64,000 bases of DNA, taken from a virus. A program made the translations under genes and the position numbers. The stretch is from IMG/VR virus record IMGVR_UViG_3300005613_000053, positions 4,156 through 68,155 of that record; one strand, 5' to 3'. Position 1 is the first letter of the stretch. Every line of letters starts with the position of its first letter. This document shows positions 2,405-24,869 of the stretch, one piece after another. Under the pieces are notes generated by a model, which did no database searches, was not told the origin of the DNA, and was given only the letters and a program-made list of their open reading frames with translations.

Positions 2405-3292
2405 CTACCCGCCAAATGCTACCAACTCAATACCATAAGCCGTATAGTCTATATTTAACGGTACCAGCGTCTCCGCCGTCTGTACATCATCACTCTCGGT
2501 CGTCGCCTCGAGGTCAGTCAACTTAAATCCATCATCCCCTATATATATTATAGCATCAGTCAGCGAATCACCTGGAAACTCTGGAGTTGCCAGGAAGTCC
2601 GCCATGTATGAGCCCGTCAAATTTATCGTCATCGGCCCAACAGCCAGATATCTCGGTTCCGCAGGAGTGGCTGAATTCTCGCAAGCAAAGAACTTCACCA
2701 CCTCCTGTGAAAACTCAAGCGACCATGTAATAAACTCGTACTCAGCACCTTCAAGCGTCACCCTAGTATTCCAAAATGGCACTGGATTTTGGTTAAAATC
2801 CGGACTCGGATTAAGCGGTGGAGGAAACGTACCGCTCGGGCATAAAAGCCCCTCACCCTCATCATTGTCTATGTACTTGTCCCCGTATACATACGAGTCC
2901 CGCTCCAAAGCCACAAAACTCAAAGAGCCTTCACATAAACCACCATCACTCGCAGAAAGACTTATAGAGGTGAAGAAGCTGTTTAAAAACTGCTGCTCAC
3001 CAGCCCCCCTTGGAGCGAAGAATACTTCCTTAGCACTCTGCCTGTCAAAAGGCCAACTCTTCAACTCATCAGTGAAGATGTCCTGAGTGATATCGAAATT
3101 TATAGAGCCATCCCAAATTTCCCAATCATAAGCTCTGGGCAGCCCTATTCCTATCTCACTCGACGGAGCATTTATCCTACCACCGTAAGCAGAAGAAGCC
3201 TCAACCTTATTACGATTCCTCGGGACTGATGTTCCAGTCCCAAGGACGTAAGTACTTCCCAACTTTACATGACCTTCGTATCCGAGAGCCAT
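2405..3292 (-). CDS. Tail tube-like structural protein (paralogue 2)
   Basis: MALGYEGHVK start; GSINFD and PVPFW motifs shared with 3312..4409. Confidence 0.6.
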   Translation of the reverse strand: MALGYEGHVKLGSTYVLGTGTSVPRNRNKVEASSAYGGRINAPSSEIGIGLPRAYDWEIWDGSINFDITQDIFTDELKSWPFDRQSAKEVFFAPRGAGEQQFLNSFFTSISLSASDGGLCEGSLSFVALERDSYVYGDKYIDNDEGEGLLCPSGTFPPPLNPSPDFNQNPVPFWNTRVTLEGAEYEFITWSLEFSQEVVKFFACENSATPAEPRYLAVGPMTINLTGSYMADFLATPEFPGDSLTDAIIYIGDDGFKLTDLEATTESDDVQTAETLVPLNIDYTAYGIELVAFGG

Positions 3293-3311
3293 ACTCCACC
3301 TCCCTTAGAGG

Positions 3312-4409
3312 TTACGGAGTAACAAATGCTCCACTACCGTCAGATATAATACACGGAGGCAATGTGGTCGTTCCCGAACACCTACCACCAAGACCCTTAA
3401 CGGAGAAGGACCTGTTTGTAACCGCATCTGCTCCAGTAATACCGTAATCATCACTCTCTACCACAACAGCCGGCAGTTCGATGAAGACATCGTTACTTCC
3501 GTTATTGATAGCAACCCTGAACCAGGTGTTTTCAGCGTACATGTACGGACTTGTCAGCGTACCTGTGCCAGCCGGACCCAGAATCGGGTCAAATACACCC
3601 TGCTCATTGTAAAGAACTACAGTACCGGTAACATCCATCGGACCCTGAAGCAGGGCTGTAGGAAGCCTGTTACCATTACATGTGTAAAGCAGTACGTGGT
3701 TCTGCGTTACATCAACATTCCACTCAACAGTCTCAAGACCAACCTGAGGGACCGCACCACCAGTAAACGGAGCACTGTAAGTACCCGTCAACAGCTGAGC
3801 ATTCGTCCTCCAGAAAGGAATCGGGTCAACGTTATTACCGCTCGGGTTCAACGGATTAGTGTCCGCCAGAACCGTACAATCGCTAGCAATAACACCGAGC
3901 TTCTGGTTGATGTAGCTATAATTTGAATAATCAGTACCACCAGCCGGGTCAACCTCACTCCTGTCCAGAGCTATCGCTCCAGCAGAAACCGTAACGAATG
4001 ACCCCTCTGAAGTAGAGAAGCCTGCGGAAGTATTCCACATTCCGTTCAGGTCGTAGTTTGCCCCATAAGCGCCTGTCGTCCTGTACTGGTACACCCTTGC
4101 GCCGTCAGGCGAGATGTCCACAGACTTCGGGTACGCTCTGTTAGTGATAATCCAGTCCTCCATCAGGTCCCACAGCTGATTACTTGCACCCATCTGAAGC
4201 TCGAAATCAATCGAACCTTCATATCTGATTGCGTTGTCAGCATAGTGAGCCGCACTCGCCGCATTATACCAGCCAGCGCCCCATACAGCACTGGAGTAAA
4301 TCGGCTCCAGAACCAGGTTCACGCTCGAACCGGTAGCCAAAACTACCTGCGGAGTCGTGGCCGGACCTGCAACGTAGAACTTCACGAATCCTTGATATCC
4401 CATTCCCAT
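3312..4409 (-). CDS. Major tail tube-like protein (paralogue 1)
   Basis: MGMGYQGFVK start; strong SD; Gly/Thr-rich beta composition. Confidence 0.6.
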   Translation of the reverse strand: MGMGYQGFVKFYVAGPATTPQVVLATGSSVNLVLEPIYSSAVWGAGWYNAASAAHYADNAIRYEGSIDFELQMGASNQLWDLMEDWIITNRAYPKSVDISPDGARVYQYRTTGAYGANYDLNGMWNTSAGFSTSEGSFVTVSAGAIALDRSEVDPAGGTDYSNYSYINQKLGVIASDCTVLADTNPLNPSGNNVDPIPFWRTNAQLLTGTYSAPFTGGAVPQVGLETVEWNVDVTQNHVLLYTCNGNRLPTALLQGPMDVTGTVVLYNEQGVFDPILGPAGTGTLTSPYMYAENTWFRVAINNGSNDVFIELPAVVVESDDYGITGADAVTNRSFSVKGLGGRCSGTTTLPPCIISDGSGAFVTP

Positions 4410-5239: not shown

Positions 5240-5534
5240 TCAACAGCTCCTTCCTATAAGCCAAAATATCCTTTTTCAAAACTTTCAACTTCCCAGCACC
5301 AGACTTAGCATTTTTTGCAATTATTTTCGCAAATTTTGCCATTTCCTTCTTCGCCAGGTTCAAATCCTCTACCGTCACCTCTCCAGAGGACTCAAGCTGC
5401 ATCTCTATCGCAGCCAATTCAGCCGTTGCTTTCTTAATCACAGCCAAATTCTTGACCACTTCTCCCATCCGCCTGACCGGCTTCATGTCAACGTACACCG
5501 GCAGAGACTCTTCTGACAACCGCATCCGCGACAT
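5226..5534 (-). CDS. Hypothetical helical protein
   Basis: Overlaps neighbours; codon bias matches the genome. Confidence 0.6.
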   Translation of the reverse strand: MSRMRLSEESLPVYVDMKPVRRMGEVVKNLAVIKKATAELAAIEMQLESSGEVTVEDLNLAKKEMAKFAKIIAKNAKSGAGKLKVLKKDILAYRKELLNAIG

Positions 5535-5730
5535 TGGTCAAACCCTCCATCTCCTTAATAAAAACGCCCATAGAAATCAAAATCTTCTTCAGCTCCTTGT
5601 CACCCTTAACACCATTATCCTCTATATCAAGAGCCCTCATGGCCTGCTTATTGGCTTTATAAGGCACTCTACCAGCCCTAACCACCCTGTCAAAGGCCTC
5701 ATTAACAATCTCGCTGTTCCGTTTTGACAT
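5488..5730 (-). CDS. Hypothetical protein (start MSKRNSE)
   Basis: GGAG SD before the ATG at ~5730. Confidence 0.55.
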   Translation of the reverse strand: MSKRNSEIVNEAFDRVVRAGRVPYKANKQAMRALDIEDNGVKGDKELKKILISMGVFIKEMEGLTNVADAVVRRVSAGVR

Positions 5731-20009: not shown

Positions 20010-20131
20010 CTTCCTACCTCCTATTTACATTAACCCTTATATTTACCTACCAATATCAAAGAAAAAATAAGCCCTTTTCGGACCATTTCCCTATCCATAC
20101 ATGTATAAATATAAAAAAATCCTCACAAAAC

Positions 20132-20189: not shown

Positions 20190-21974
20190 TTACACCGAGA
20201 CAGTCCATCCCTCTCTAATCTGGTCCACAGTAGGCAGCGGGTCTCCCTCACCACCCTCAGTACGAGCCAACATCGTGAATACCTTCTCCGAGAATCCCGC
20301 AAGCTGGTTAGTCTGCGAATCCTCATCAACAACGGCATCACCCGACCCGTTCAGGTGAATACAATGAAGCCAGGTCTTCTTAGCCTCCTTAGAAGAGGCA
20401 ACATAAGTCGACCATGTATCACACACAGCCTTTACCTCATCATCATAAGACCTTCCCCAGCCACCCCTACTTCCAGCCATACTGGTGTCATCCCAGCACT
20501 GCATATCCGACAGGATTATCACCCTGTCAGGATAGATACCCTTCTTCTTCAACAGGAGAGGAATCTTCCACGCATTGGTATTATGGCCATTGATACCATT
20601 CTTAGGCATCTTTCCAGCTATACCAAGAACACTCTCATTCTTAGTATAATTGATAACCTTGGTATCAGTAGCGAAACCATACACGTACGGCTTCTCAGCA
20701 GCCTTAGCCACTATTCCACACAGAACACTTGCTGCATCAGCACAACTTACTCTGCTCTTACCAGACACCATCGTCGAAGTCATAGACCCCGAAGCATCTG
20801 CGAACACAGCAGTCACACCAGGCAAATCAATATTCCTACAAGCGAAATCAGCAGCCTGCTCAACAGCACCAGCCAACACATTCCTATGTGCACCATCAAC
20901 ACCAGAGATATCCAGTGACTTCAGCGCACTCAGGAACCTGAATGGAAGCTGCTTAGACCTCTCTACAACCTTCTCATTTGAGATAAAAGCCGCCACCTTA
21001 TCTACATGACTCTCGCTTACCTCCGCCTGAAGAATATTCCTCAGGTTCCTCAGCATAGCCATATAGCCCAGAAGCCTCTCATCAATAAGAAACTCCCATA
21101 CTGCCTTCTTCTCATCCGGGAACTGAGAAAGCAAAACCTCCCAGTTCACCATCGAATCCTTAGCGAGTTTCCTCGCCTTCTCATCGAACTTCGAAAGCTG
21201 CAAAAGCTCCTTCCTGGCAGCGATAATAGGTGTTTTACCTGAGTCAGCCACGTGGCCTGTAATGAAATAATTCGCCACGGCATCGTCCAAAGGCCATCCC
21301 TTCTTACGCTTAATCCAGCAAAGCACATCCTTCCATGAAGGAAACTCAGCTCCCTCATACTTCATAAGACCCCTCTCTCCGAACCTTGAAACCGCATCAC
21401 CCAGGCCCATATCAAGACCATGAGACAGCGACTTCATCCCGAAGAAGAACCTATGAAGCAAGAGCACAGTCTTCACCTCATCAGGACGCTTTATAATACA
21501 AGGTGCATACCTACGTACGAGCGTCTTCGTCGACTCAATCTTTGATGCTATCACCAATATGACCTGCGGAGTAAGACGAATATTCATCTCATTCCTCAGC
21601 CAGTTAGCTATAGCCAGAACATCCTCCGGATTCCCGGAATTAGCCACGTCAACTATCGTCGCCACGACCTCCCTGGCCACATCATTAAGCTCATCACACG
21701 AAGCAAAATCCTTCAGCTTGTCATCAACCAACTGAATCCTCTGGACCAGTTTGCCAAACTTTCCACCGCCTACCCTGCTTGGTATACAGGCATCAGCACT
21801 GTAAAACTTAGGCTCAGCGAAAAATGAACCTCCGGTCATAGTCACCAGCTTGAGAGCCGGGTCATTAACCTCAAAAGCCACTCCACCTGCCCTGTTCACA
21901 GTAGCATTAGGCTGTGAGCTAGGCTTCCTACTAGCCTTCGCCTTCTTCCTTGCCATCTTCTGCATCGTACCCAT
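20190..21974 (-). CDS. rsr: Ro60/Rsr-like TROVE-domain RNA-binding protein with C-terminal vWA domain
   Basis: NRAGGVAF, MAMLRNLRN, SKQLPFRF, DASGSM (MIDAS), ILSDMQ, LAGFSE; AAGGAGG SD before ATG 21974. Confidence 0.92.
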   Translation of the reverse strand: MGTMQKMARKKAKASRKPSSQPNATVNRAGGVAFEVNDPALKLVTMTGGSFFAEPKFYSADACIPSRVGGGKFGKLVQRIQLVDDKLKDFASCDELNDVAREVVATIVDVANSGNPEDVLAIANWLRNEMNIRLTPQVILVIASKIESTKTLVRRYAPCIIKRPDEVKTVLLLHRFFFGMKSLSHGLDMGLGDAVSRFGERGLMKYEGAEFPSWKDVLCWIKRKKGWPLDDAVANYFITGHVADSGKTPIIAARKELLQLSKFDEKARKLAKDSMVNWEVLLSQFPDEKKAVWEFLIDERLLGYMAMLRNLRNILQAEVSESHVDKVAAFISNEKVVERSKQLPFRFLSALKSLDISGVDGAHRNVLAGAVEQAADFACRNIDLPGVTAVFADASGSMTSTMVSGKSRVSCADAASVLCGIVAKAAEKPYVYGFATDTKVINYTKNESVLGIAGKMPKNGINGHNTNAWKIPLLLKKKGIYPDRVIILSDMQCWDDTSMAGSRGGWGRSYDDEVKAVCDTWSTYVASSKEAKKTWLHCIHLNGSGDAVVDEDSQTNQLAGFSEKVFTMLARTEGGEGDPLPTVDQIREGWTVSV

Positions 21975-22052
21975 TCTGCACCTCCTTATTTGAAGCGTAG
22001 CCACACATTGTAGCTACCAATTAATAATCACCGTTTCCACTCAGTCACGGCA

Positions 22053-22089: not shown

Positions 22090-22164
22090 TGGTAGCGGGA
22101 GACGGATTCGAACCGCCGACCTCCAGGTTATGAGCCTAGCGAGCTGCCGCTGCTCCATCCCGCA
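22090..22164 (-). tRNA. tRNA-Met(CAU), initiator-type, CCA encoded
   Basis: UGCGGGAUGGAGCAGCGGCAGCUCG..CUCAUAA..GGUUCGAAUCC..CCCGCUACCA; 1:72 mismatch. Confidence 0.95.
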
Positions 22165-22174
22165 ATCATAAAAA

Positions 22175-22247
22175 GAACCGACACCAATAATCGTCTAAGG
22201 CTTTGTTTCCTATGAAGAAGTATCCCTAGACTGAAGCGTATCAATCC
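22175..22247 (-). ncRNA. Minimal Y RNA-like RNA
   Basis: GGAUUGAUAC/GUGUCGGUUC closing stem; GCUUCA / GAUUAUUG internal loop; GUCUAGGG/CCUUAGAC stem; GAUACUUC motif; next to the TROVE gene. Confidence 0.7.
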
Positions 22248-22254
22248 AAAAAAC

Positions 22255-22350
22255 ATCAGTACCAGTATCAACCTGTCCGTACAAACAAGTCTTGCCAGGT
22301 GTACGCCCGACTGGCCATCGCTTCTGCGACTGTGGCCATCTAGCACCAAC
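22255..22350 (-). ncRNA. Unknown ~95-nt structured RNA
   Basis: 11-bp terminal stem GUUGGUGCUAG/CUGGUACUGAU; two internal arms; U-rich spacers on both sides. Confidence 0.55.
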
Positions 22351-22364
22351 TAAATAATAATAAA

Positions 22365-22690
22365 AAATCTTCAACTCCAATAGTCGCTTGAGGTAACCGG
22401 AGGCGCCTCGGAAGTAGTTAGTTCCGCGCGTGCTCCTTTACAATTCAGTATTACCTGAAAGGTGCTCCCTTTACGCGGTTGCATACGCCCTTGCCATTCC
22501 TGACAGGGAAGTATCTACATAACCCGTAGACGGTCGCCCGAAGGCAATTTGTCATGCTTCAGCACTCTAACCGAAGAGCTCCACACAACGGATTAACGCT
22601 CACAACCGGCCCGCTTTCACGGTCCTGTATAATGCGTTATTACTGTTTTCAGTATAAGAAGTAACCCCTTACTGAAGCGAGTCAAGATTT
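22365..22690 (-). ncRNA. Long (~325 nt) Y RNA-like RNA with a large multi-hairpin insert
   Basis: Same end motifs as 22175..22247 (CGCUUCAGU..GGGUUACUUCUU and CGACUAUUGG); closing stem AAAUCUUGACUC/GAGUUGAAGAUUU. Confidence 0.7.
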
Positions 22691-22741
22691 TTCCATTTCA
22701 AAGAACTATCATAATATACACGCAGTCTCTGGAAAGTTCAA
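22691..22741 (-). promoter_or_regulatory. Sigma70-type promoter plus boxA-like element
   Basis: TTGAAC-17 nt-TATATT, then GTTCTTTGAAATGG. Confidence 0.7.
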
Positions 22742-22751
22742 CAAAAAAGTT

Positions 22752-23003: not shown

Positions 23004-23936
23004 TGGTTAGTGTGAAAGAGCAGTTACCCAACATGGGTACACTAAGTTGCAGTCCGCAACCTCTGCTCCAGTAAAAGCCCCTCCAGGGCAAAAAGATACG
23101 ATGACGGAGCGACGGAGGAGTCTACATCCTCTTGCCTTTGTTTCCCTCGCTCCTTTCCCTTTCGGGCGCGTTGTCGCGGTTCGGCGTCCGCTTTGGAGTA
23201 GATTATTCCCCGTCATCGAATTGATGGAGTGTATGGGAATCACCCTTCTGCCATCCTTGTTACCGCCTTACAAAATCTAATAAGTTCACCATCAGTATGA
23301 GAATTCCTTGCATAATTCGCTATAACAGCAATGAACCTAACATTACCTTTTACATAACCCTTACTACTATCTATACGGTCTAAACTAGCCCTATGAGACC
23401 ATTCACATTCAGGCCACTTACCCGTCGTACTTATAGGCAACTCCAACTCCCACCCAGTCAAAGGACACAAACCCTCTTGCTTGTCCCATATAAATTTTAA
23501 ATCCTCTAAAGTTAAATCAACCTCTTTATTCCCACGTCTACCTATTGCTCTCAGCAAGAACCAACGGAATGGTGTATACTCATCCCGCCTATTTTTAGAA
23601 CATAGACCCAAATGCCAATAACCCTCAGAAGGTGTATCTATATGCCTCCTTTTACTAGAACAAGATAAACTACAAAAGTGACGCTGGCCTTTCCTTTCGC
23701 TTCTACTATACTCAGAAAAAGTCTTTTGGAACTCTTTTTTACACTGGAAACACTCAACACTAACCATCTTCCTCATGATACCCTCCTCATCATTAAGAAA
23801 GATATTAGATAATTATTGGAGCAATGGTATTGTTTCATTCCGAATACCATCTTTCCACTCAGTCAACACCCCTTGATAAGATAACTCGCCTACTCAACTA
23901 AAGGTACCCGTGCACAGGCTCCTTCAGCCCCAACCA
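23004..23936 (-). ncRNA. Large unknown structured RNA interrupted by an HNH ORF
   Basis: Nested pairings across the ORF: UGGUUGG/CUAACCA, UGAAGGAGC/GCUCUUUCA, GGGUAC/GUACCC, AGUUG/CAACU, UGCUCCA/UGGAGCA; internal GAUGACGGGG/CUCCGUCAUC. Confidence 0.55.
23240..23776 (-). CDS. HNH/His-Me finger endonuclease with N-terminal Zn finger
   Basis: CFQC..FCSLSC; LCPLTG..SLDRIDSSKGYVKGNV..AN. Confidence 0.85.
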   Translation of the reverse strand: MRKMVSVECFQCKKEFQKTFSEYSRSERKGQRHFCSLSCSSKRRHIDTPSEGYWHLGLCSKNRRDEYTPFRWFLLRAIGRRGNKEVDLTLEDLKFIWDKQEGLCPLTGWELELPISTTGKWPECEWSHRASLDRIDSSKGYVKGNVRFIAVIANYARNSHTDGELIRFCKAVTRMAEG

Positions 23937-23961: not shown

Positions 23962-24330
23962 TGGTGGACGTGGGGAGATTTGAACTCCCGTCCTGAACGG
24001 GCTTACCATATGCCTCTACGTGTGTATCTGAATTTACAGTAATCAGAAACTGTTTGTCCGTCTTCCCGAACTGCCATCCCGTCTTTCCGGACTGTCAATG
24101 GTCTTACCCGATTGTCAGAGCTGTCTGTTAGACCTCAAGGCTTACTTGCTCACGCTCGCCTGTTTTGGCTCGGTTGCTTACGCAGCAGCGAGAGCCGGAG
24201 CTCTCTCTGCACCGAAAAGATTGATAACGTTGCCGTTTATCAGTTTGTACCAGATGATTTACGAGGCCAACTGGAATCCTCGACACGCAGCGTATGACTT
24301 GCATCCGACAGTCGAATCCTTGTCACGCCC
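23962..24330 (-). ncRNA. ssrA: tmRNA, tag (A)GNVINLFGAERAPALAAA
   Basis: 5' GGGCGUGACAAGGAUUCGAC; G3-U70 pair; pk1; resume context AUAAAC-GGC; tag ends LAAA*; 3' GUUCAAAUC..UCCACCA. Confidence 0.95.
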
Positions 24331-24339
24331 AAAATTAGG

Positions 24340-24577
24340 CCTGCCTCTCCCCTTTCGGAGGTTTGTGCTCCACGATACATCTTGCGGTCCGGTTTTTCCC
24401 TCGCGGTACTTTGCCGTGTCCGCCTGACCACCAACGCGCAGGCGACGTTGGGGCTTCAAAGCATGGGGACGAATGGTTTCCCTTGCCGGTACTCACACCC
24501 ATCAACTCCACCACCCAGGTCTGGCCCGTTACCTTCCTTCTGCTTGACTACCTGGGACACAGAAGACTTTAGGCAAA
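24340..24577 (-). ncRNA. Unknown ~240-nt RNA with two pseudoknots and two loop-E/GNRA hairpins
   Basis: Closing UUUGCCU/AGGCAGG; CUUCUG/CAGAAG crossed with CCCAGGU/ACCUGGG; CCAACG/CGUUGG crossed with CGCCUG/CAGGCG; AGUACC-GGCAA/GCGA-GGGAAA twice. Confidence 0.6.
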
Positions 24578-24582
24578 TGTTT

Positions 24583-24800
24583 TGGCCGCCGAAACGGCCA
24601 TCCCGGCTTTCAAACAGTCAACAGTGAAATCGCCATTGGTTGTATGAACGATATACTTAAATTAACCACTATCAGTCGGATAAAATATAATGGAGGCTGT
24701 AAGAACGGTAGTCCCGACAATACGCGACTGTATTTTTTCACCTTCTGCCCGGCCTCGCAAAATACTGCGATAACTGCCAAGCACAATCTCCAGTGCTCCA
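24583..24800 (-). ncRNA. Unknown structured RNA or operon leader
   Basis: GGCAGUUA/UGACUGUU, GGUGAAA/UUUCACU, CAGUCG/CGACUG, UCGCA/UGCGA with loop GUAUUU complementary to AAAUAC. Confidence 0.4.
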
Positions 24801-24808
24801 AATCCTTA

Positions 24809-24869
24809 TTCCATTTTCAATGAACATGCCCTAATATCGCGAAACTTCACGTAAAAGGGAATTAAAAAA
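24809..24869 (-). promoter_or_regulatory. ATTCC-N16-CGCGATA promoter-like motif plus boxA-like element
   Basis: Same motif at 28040-28067 and 28863-28891; GTTCATTGAAAATGG downstream. Confidence 0.6.

Follow-up and report, generated by a model that had tools for sequence, protein, structure and literature searches.

A folded RNA built on a conserved pseudoknot, encoded beside the tmRNA gene of a phage and outside the described Rfam families

The window analysed here is a stretch of 64,000 nucleotides (nt) of the IMG/VR virus record IMGVR_UViG_3300005613_000053 (positions 4,156 to 68,155 of that record). Its minus strand encodes, at about 24331–24600, a genuine structured RNA outside every described Rfam family. 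The element lies next to the gene of transfer-messenger RNA (tmRNA) in a cluster that also contains a tRNA-Met gene and a gene of the Ro60-like TROVE family. Its predicted conserved core (about 24468–24600) consists of a 5′ hairpin (P0), an H-type pseudoknot (PK-A), a single-stranded UGGUGGAG linker and a 9-bp stem (P3). The stems of the pseudoknot covary between two phage sequences, and its loops are invariant. An earlier note on this DNA, made from the sequence alone, had been drawn to two hairpins resembling ribosomal RNA (rRNA); these belong to the periphery of the element. The best explanation overall, for which the balance is about even, is a new structured RNA that acts in trans as a binding scaffold.

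Conserved core and transcription sense

A search with the TROVE protein brought in 8 IMG/VR and 29 metagenome loci. A recognisable copy of the element was found in only one locus, L022, which is a 4.8-kb metagenome contig (TROVE 69% identical). The blastn alignment shows 74% identity over 90 nt (E 2.4e-11). With the model R1, the window scores 117.0 bits and L022 127.4 bits, and the next best score among 37 sources (357 kb) is 10.3 bits. In L022, a homologue of a 126-aa open reading frame (ORF126) is followed by the element (about 944–1100), a strong hairpin with a U-run, two small lipoprotein-like open reading frames (ORFs) and tmRNA (2033–2410); TROVE starts from 3421.

Stem S1 of PK-A is formed by 24560–24566/24536–24542, and stem S2 by 24550–24556/24514–24520. 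The loops are L1 (24557–24559), L2 (24543–24549) and L3 (24521–24535). Covariation was counted in the window–L022 alignment over 18 pairs, namely P0, S1 and six pairs of S2. All 36 cells (18 pairs in two sequences) are paired, and half of the pairs (9 of 18) carry changes on both sides. Only 1 of 500 shuffles was as good, and slid controls were 33–61% paired. In S1, all seven pairs are kept and five are changed on both sides; the six counted pairs of S2 are all paired, two of them with changes on both sides. For P0 of L022, an alternative register is possible. The strands of S1 are identical between the window and L022 at just 1/7 and 2/7 positions, and the loops L1, L2 and L3 are identical throughout (3/3, 7/7 and 15/15). 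Covarying stems together with invariant loops are the signature of a functional folded RNA with sequence-constrained loops. The covariation check proposed by the earlier note thus gave support in the PK-A stems and P0.

The 9-pair pattern of P3 is identical between L022 and the window: two G-U pairs occupy the same positions, and one A-U pair is changed to G-C. The stem ends in a GAUA tetraloop in L022, and in the first of the rRNA-like hairpins in the window. The region 940–1115 of L022 folds with a z score of −5.45, and none of 200 shuffles was equal.

A closer relative was found among the contigs of four public runs. This 428-nt contig (runs X1 and X2, perhaps one data set) matches 24332–24577 with 16 differences and two one-base gaps (about 93% identity), and diverges from the window beyond both ends of that segment. 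It is known as a variant list, in which 12 substitutions were mapped by script. Eight of the 12 lie in helices, and seven of these eight maintain, strengthen or newly form pairs when read in the minus sense. U-G becomes U-A in S1. In P3, G-U becomes A-U and U-G becomes C-G, and a deletion with a U-to-C change re-pairs the base of the stem. In the lower stem of the second rRNA-like hairpin, G-C becomes G-U and C-A becomes U-A. These variants are weakly suggestive of a folded 3′ domain, with which they are compatible.

The element corresponds to no described family. In Rfam 15, the region 24331–24869 gave only chance-level matches at E ≤ 10, and the same is true of L022 860–1160; the expectation of novelty in the earlier note is borne out, as no family was found in either sequence at the gathering score or at E ≤ 10. 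No published description of this RNA was found in the literature, judged from titles and abstracts. The novelty is that of an RNA family, and none is claimed for its mechanism.

Further homologues were sought with several queries. Blastn against a phage collection and a two-hairpin pattern in IMG/VR gave no homologue. The ORF126 protein, used by itself and then as a two-sequence alignment, added no homologue locus from IMG/VR.

A segment of another locus, L074 4768–4832 (equal to L002 at about 5640–5704), lies about 100 nt after a twister ribozyme. It reads …GGUAGCCGGGCUG…UGGUGGAG followed by a 7-bp GAAA-capped hairpin and CCCC; the motif UGGUGGAGUU of the linker J2/3, then a hairpin and CCCC, recurs at L074 4800–4832. 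The segment resembles the 3′ half of the core. Its R1 score is 8.4 bits (E 0.12), and a three-way alignment that includes it contains 30 invariant columns. No consistent pseudoknot could be fitted to L074 4768–4832, and it was not counted as a member; it is a possible distant relative.

According to the base pairs, the sense of the RNA can be assigned. Read in the minus sense, the helices of the window are free of mismatches and include five G-U pairs; on the plus strand, these five would be C-A mismatches. P3 of L022 has two further G-U pairs in the equivalent sense. Right after P3 in L022, there is a 13-bp terminator-like hairpin with UUUU, which works only in the sense of the element. Because of the G-U pairs and the L022 terminator, the predicted RNA is read in the same direction as ORF126, tmRNA and TROVE. 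The coordinates are collected in Table 1.

Table 1. Parts of the element and its neighbouring genes in the window
Feature	Position	Strand	Remark
P0 hairpin, 5–6 bp, 5′ edge of core	24583–24600	−	Paired in window and L022; 2 pairs changed on both sides
Linker J0/1 (…UGCC.AAAG)	24567–24582	−	11/16 bases same as in L022
PK-A, H-type pseudoknot	24514–24566	−	Covariation between window and L022
Single-stranded linker J2/3, UGGUGGAGUU	24504–24513	−	9/10 bases same as in L022
P3, 9-bp stem with hairpin 1 as its tip	24468–24503 (24494–24503/24468–24476, U24495 bulged)	−	Same pattern in L022 1046–1054/1059–1067
Hairpin 1, AGUACC-GGCAA-GGGAAA: AGUA/GAAA internal loop, 2 bp, GGCAA loop	24477–24493	−	Lineage-specific tip of P3
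PK-B, candidate second interleaved stem pair (24446–24451/24431–24436 and 24439–24444/24421–24426)	24421–24451	−	Absent from L022
Hairpin 2: lower stems, AGUA/GAAA loop, GCGA tetraloop; motif AGUACC-GCGA-GGGAAA at 24395–24410	24385–24422	−	Absent from L022
3′ tail running into tmRNA 5′ end, with small GAAA-capped hairpin (24349–24360)	24331–24384	−	
tmRNA gene	23962–24330	−	ARAGORN (tag peptide read) and Rfam RF00023, 116.3 bits
ORF126, basic, 126 aa, upstream of element in window and L022	24870–25250	−	41% identity to L022 452–862
tRNA-Met gene, same cluster	22090–22164	−	ARAGORN and Rfam
TROVE/Ro60-like gene, 604 aa, about 2.3–2.6 kb downstream of element	20190–22004	−	Pfam TROVE, E 4.6e-22

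On the minus strand, no sigma-70-like promoter site is present at 24331–24869. A sigma-70-like site is located upstream of ORF126 (25300–25273), and a terminator-like site follows tmRNA (23919–23906). Because no promoter-like site was found between ORF126 and tmRNA, the element and tmRNA are probably made on one transcript in the window. The 5′ end of tmRNA is matured by an RNase P cut, and such a cut at 24330/24331 would free the 3′ end of the element. In L022, the core would be closed by an intrinsic terminator of its own, which gives it the look of a stand-alone small RNA and not of the leader of a single gene. A gene-specific leader is also disfavoured because the downstream genes differ between the window and L022.

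The motif TT[CT]TTTGATAT is likely a clade-specific promoter element. Its copies in the window stand shortly before ORFs of the minus strand (18865, 20053, 26138, 27321, 55112 and 58474), and it directly precedes tmRNA in L004, L005, L019, L022 and L038. Between 22705 and 26138 of the window, no copy of it with up to two mismatches was found.

The position directly upstream of tmRNA, given in the earlier note, is true of the window; in L022, the element and tmRNA are separated by a terminator and two ORFs. The element is located immediately 5′ of the mature tmRNA end, as are pre-tmRNA 5′ leaders. Unlike these, it is a structured stretch of about 270 nt, its core is away from tmRNA in L022, and relatives have a promoter-like motif at this place. 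Among the known copies, the apparent fusion to tmRNA occurs only in the window. The homology of the 428-nt contig ends 2 nt short of the tmRNA 5′ end, while a 95% identical tmRNA sits on a separate contig. This gives a hint of a separable module.

rRNA-like hairpins and the 3′ extension

Both hairpins with the motif AGUACC-N4/5-GGGAAA reported in the earlier note are present on the minus strand, at 24395–24410 and at 24477–24493 (24477–24494 had been given for the latter). In the 64 kb, AGTACC-N4/5-GGGAAA has two matches, both of which are in the element; 0.01 was expected, and none of 100 shuffles had at least two. The motif has no match in 70 of 71 loci checked, and the sole match, L001, is the window's own genome. 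The repeat is shared over 17 nt at a spacing of 83 nt, and it is not part of a longer duplication. The occurrence of the motif in 23S rRNA is also correct: E. coli rrlB carries AGTACCGTGAGGGAAA at 23S nt 457–472, and 15 of its 16 bases are identical to hairpin 2. This 23S hairpin has a bulged-G/loop-E internal loop and a GNRA cap, and hairpin 1 has the same AGUACC…GGGAAA arms. The likeness between rrlB and the element stops at 16 nt (E 0.062), and the other matches are words of 8–13 nt. A fragment or pseudogene of 23S rRNA was therefore rejected as an identity of the element, as only the 16-nt match to rrlB was obtained and no large-subunit rRNA model matched.

The design of the hairpins would resemble that of the sarcin-ricin loop. 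The loop-E assignment of the AGUA/GAA motif fits at the level of sequence in both hairpins. In hairpin 1, the loop-E/bulged-G motif is flanked by G24494-C24476 and by CC/GG pairs. In hairpin 2, the fit is incomplete: one flank has A-A mismatches, without a Watson-Crick pair closing the internal loop.

Two H-type pseudoknots had been proposed. Both sets of stems exist, and only PK-A is conserved and backed by covariation. PK-B has no counterpart in L022; one compatible change from U-A to U-G in the 93% relative is its sole support. Interleaved stem pairs of such size are frequent by chance, with at least one in 336 of 500 dinucleotide shuffles and at least two in 240 of 500.

L022 has no counterpart of PK-B, hairpin 2 or the remainder of the 3′ extension (24331–24467), and it carries the GAUA tetraloop in place of hairpin 1. 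The rRNA-like hairpins thus lie outside the conserved core of the element. Both bulged-G hairpins appear as peripheral add-ons of this lineage only, one on the P3 tip and one in the 3′ extension. They are best read as peripheral modules, which may serve, for example, for tertiary contacts or as an added binding site.

A further complementarity was spotted by eye. UUGCC in J0/1 (24572–24576) is complementary in the minus sense to GGCAA at 24483–24487 (the loop of hairpin 1) and at 24411–24415 (5′ of hairpin 2). The changes of the close relative at 24484 and 24413 would keep G-U pairs with UUGCC. The complementarity is not present in L022, and it may represent a loop–linker contact.

Proposed function and alternatives

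We propose that the element acts in trans as a binding scaffold within the phage RNA cluster of tmRNA, tRNA-Met and the Ro60-like TROVE protein. Since invariant single-stranded bases lie between covarying helices, the loops and the linker would serve as a surface recognized by a protein or by some other RNA of the cluster, or possibly as a catalytic core. The first candidate partner would be the TROVE protein, although this choice is a tentative one. Also doubtful is a wider proposal, in which the pseudoknot core would be the catalytic or binding heart of a new RNA class in a large-phage RNA island with tmRNA, tRNA-Met, twister ribozymes and Ro60. The RNA would then work either as a novel self-cleaving ribozyme for processing of the multi-RNA transcript or as a Ro60 partner of a non-canonical kind, the latter having gained the bulged-G hairpins in this lineage to engage the ribosome or rRNA-binding proteins.

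Several observations weigh against this overall explanation. The covariation is drawn from two full sequences and one variant list, about three sequences in all, so that the statistics are thin. One variant of the close relative breaks a pair of S2 (C-G to C-A, 24555/24515). According to the minimum free energy, the window RNA folds no better than shuffled sequences (z of +1.06 for the whole, +0.02 for the core and +1.07 for the 3′ part). Over six related TROVE-bearing IMG/VR records, R1 detected no element, and three loop-based pattern scans of IMG/VR detected none. A first pattern in GTDB genomes had no match; a second had 33, all of which score at most 24.5 bits with R1 and are pattern-only. 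We infer co-transcription with tmRNA and release by RNase P from missing promoter-like motifs only. In addition, neither the window element, read in the minus sense, nor the plus strand of L022 contains the YrlA motif GNCGAAN0-1G, which is expected near the 5′ end within the Ro-binding stem; the one window copy is on the opposite strand, at 24468.

According to PMC4201824, YrlA RNAs are characterized by a same-strand location no more than 4 kb from Ro60, the GNCGAAN0-1G motif and a tRNA-like module, and bacterial and phage YrlA genes nearly always show this location. The element could accordingly be considered as a Y-RNA-like partner of the phage Ro60/TROVE protein, which would tether the TROVE ring to an effector or to rRNA-like substrates. 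Its position agrees with this rule (<4 kb, same strand): the element lies 2.3–2.6 kb upstream of TROVE on the same strand in the window (24331–24600 and 20190–22004, both minus) and in L022 (944–1100 and from 3421). No Rfam Y-RNA match occurs anywhere in the window, so the place of a Ro60 partner is unfilled. The element nevertheless differs from YrlA in its structure. Besides the lack of GNCGAAN0-1G on the sense strand, no tRNA-like module of T and D arms was detected in the element with ARAGORN and Rfam, and no terminal Ro-binding stem joins the 5′ and 3′ ends. Moreover, the conserved non-coding region 22165–22751 is closer to TROVE and would suit a Y RNA just as well, and the six TROVE-bearing phage records related to the window have no element. 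A canonical YrlA or Y RNA was therefore rejected on motif and tRNA-like module, and a Y-RNA-like partner in the broader sense is improbable.

PMC4201824 also describes GGUCCGA as a Ro60 contact. The window has six copies of GGTCCGA (3.76 expected), none of which is in the element. At L004 6140–6395 (equal to L017), upstream of tmRNA, an RNA-like segment starts with …GCUGGUCCGAAG…, is closed by a long-range stem (z −2.04) and contains GGUCCGA; no Rfam Y-RNA match was found there. A similar ATAGGGAA…GGTCCGAA is present at window 20078–20094, after the TROVE gene and beside a promoter-like motif.

Ranked next, and improbable as well, is a new small self-cleaving or processing ribozyme, in which the pseudoknot would be the catalytic core that cuts a multi-RNA transcript, as twister does in relatives. 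Small ribozyme cores typically show covarying stems with invariant loops, and this pattern is present in the window and L022. The element shares with twister-P5 (RF02684) and other small pseudoknotted ribozymes and aptamers a compact H-type pseudoknot, covarying stems, invariant loop bases and a location in a phage RNA-gene cluster. Twister-P5 occurs at equivalent places in the RNA cluster of relatives (none in the window or L022), and the possible distant relative in L074 lies after a twister. The tmRNA of the window is without its own promoter-like motif, so processing would be needed. RNase P alone, however, suffices to free tmRNA, and in L022, where the element ends at the terminator, there is nothing downstream to process. 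No cleavage site can be proposed. The element differs from the known small ribozymes and aptamers by an L2 that is unusually long (7 nt), and it has no score with a ribozyme or riboswitch family of Rfam at E ≤ 10.

After the ribozyme, and again unlikely, comes a cis element of ORF126, that is, a riboswitch or attenuator, or a stability structure of the 3′ untranslated region. The element directly follows ORF126 in both the window and L022, and its invariant loops resemble a ligand pocket. The strong terminator of L022 is directly 3′ of the core, and GCCCC after P3 could pair with GGGGC of the terminator. This alternative pairing is 5 bp long, compared with 13 bp in the terminator, and there is no terminator after the core in the window. 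The downstream sequence differs (tmRNA in the window, two lipoprotein-like ORFs in L022), and the ORF126 homologue of L074 is about 1.8 kb from the possible relative.

The earlier note had considered an rRNA mimic or decoy, in which the two 23S-like hairpins would soak up a ribotoxin or a ribosomal protein. The excess of the motif (two copies of 16–17 nt, 0.01 expected) and its 15/16 identity to E. coli 23S nt 457–472 are in favour, and the hairpins are not one longer duplication, so the motif may have been selected twice. Both hairpins are missing, however, from L022 and the 70 other loci checked, so this cannot be the conserved function; the rRNA likeness stops at 16 nt, and no linked toxin or ribosomal protein gene was identified nearby. 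A decoy is very improbable.

Hardly more credible is that the region is not an RNA gene, but a 59-aa ORF, a decayed plus-strand tmRNA or DNA-level protein-binding repeats, since the compensatory stem changes beside invariant loops are unlike coding or operator DNA. The open frame (24335–24514, minus) does span the region, but it is reduced to 11 codons in L022; in the close relative, it has lost its AUG and carries two 1-nt deletions 38 nt apart (a net frame shift), and it was rejected. The second tmRNA was suggested by plus-strand 24463–24480, which matches the 5′ start of the L005 tmRNA at 17 of 18 bases (E 1.3); it was rejected because the tmRNA profile does not support it. A profile of five clade tmRNAs (nhmmer, both strands) has its best match in the element region at E 12 and its best match besides the window's tmRNA at E 4.9; Rfam and ARAGORN find one tmRNA only, and none in the element region. 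In favour of protein-binding repeats, the two motifs form direct repeats at a distance of 83 bp.

On the plus strand, the tmRNA-5′-like start within 24463–24513 is followed 30 nt on by CTCCACCA, which in the minus sense is the invariant UGGUGGAG. A post hoc comparison shows complementarity between UGGUGGAG and the final 7 nt at the 3′ end of tmRNA (…GUCCACCA), both in the window and in L022.

The RNA gene cluster of the phage

The virus record has 68,155 bases. Because its CheckV completeness is only 29%, the phage genome is probably large and the window a fragment of it. The order on the minus strand is ORF126, a 539-nt gap (24331–24869), tmRNA, an HNH endonuclease ORF, an acyl-carrier-like ORF, a gap of about 590 nt, tRNA-Met and TROVE. 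Of the 539-nt gap, the element takes up the half that is nearer to tmRNA. The motifs quoted in the earlier note are read on the minus strand. ORF126 has homologues with 56–75% identity and a weak match to DUF2188 in Pfam.

The order of tmRNA, tRNA-Met and TROVE is kept in many related phage loci, some of which add twister-P5 ribozymes. These ribozymes are located at 5448–5524 in L002/L003 and at 4185–4273 in L006, with scores of 48.6 and 38 bits that reach the gathering threshold; in L002, the position is between tRNA-Met and tmRNA. The HNH/endonuclease VII-like ORF of the window (23240–23776, minus; phrog_3322, E 1.7e-17) directly follows tmRNA, and it may be a homing endonuclease within the RNA gene cluster.

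The gap of about 590 nt (22165–22751, minus) aligns with L022 2882–3345 and contains a promoter-like block and several conserved blocks. A block CTTCAGT…GGGTTACTTC… is present twice in each phage within these regions. No Rfam match at E ≤ 5 was found in this gap besides the tRNA itself. At least one additional unannotated RNA is probably encoded there, and the gap is a candidate location for a Ro60 partner. In L074, the ORF126 homologue (39% identity) is followed downstream by a region of about 1.4 kb (2975–4398) with short ORFs only. This region has many tetraloop-capped hairpins and two copies of the promoter-like motif, and may hold several unannotated structured RNAs.

Large phages carry translation-related RNAs (tmRNA, tRNAs) and, in some cases, Ro60 homologues, and the RNAs working with these are largely undescribed. 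The element is a clean case of a structured phage RNA, with a conserved pseudoknot, invariant loops and no described family. Its core of about 140 nt provides a short and concrete RNA for cleavage, ligand and protein-binding assays. Since the relatives hold further structure-rich non-coding stretches, the phage "RNA island" is worth systematic mining with covariance models.

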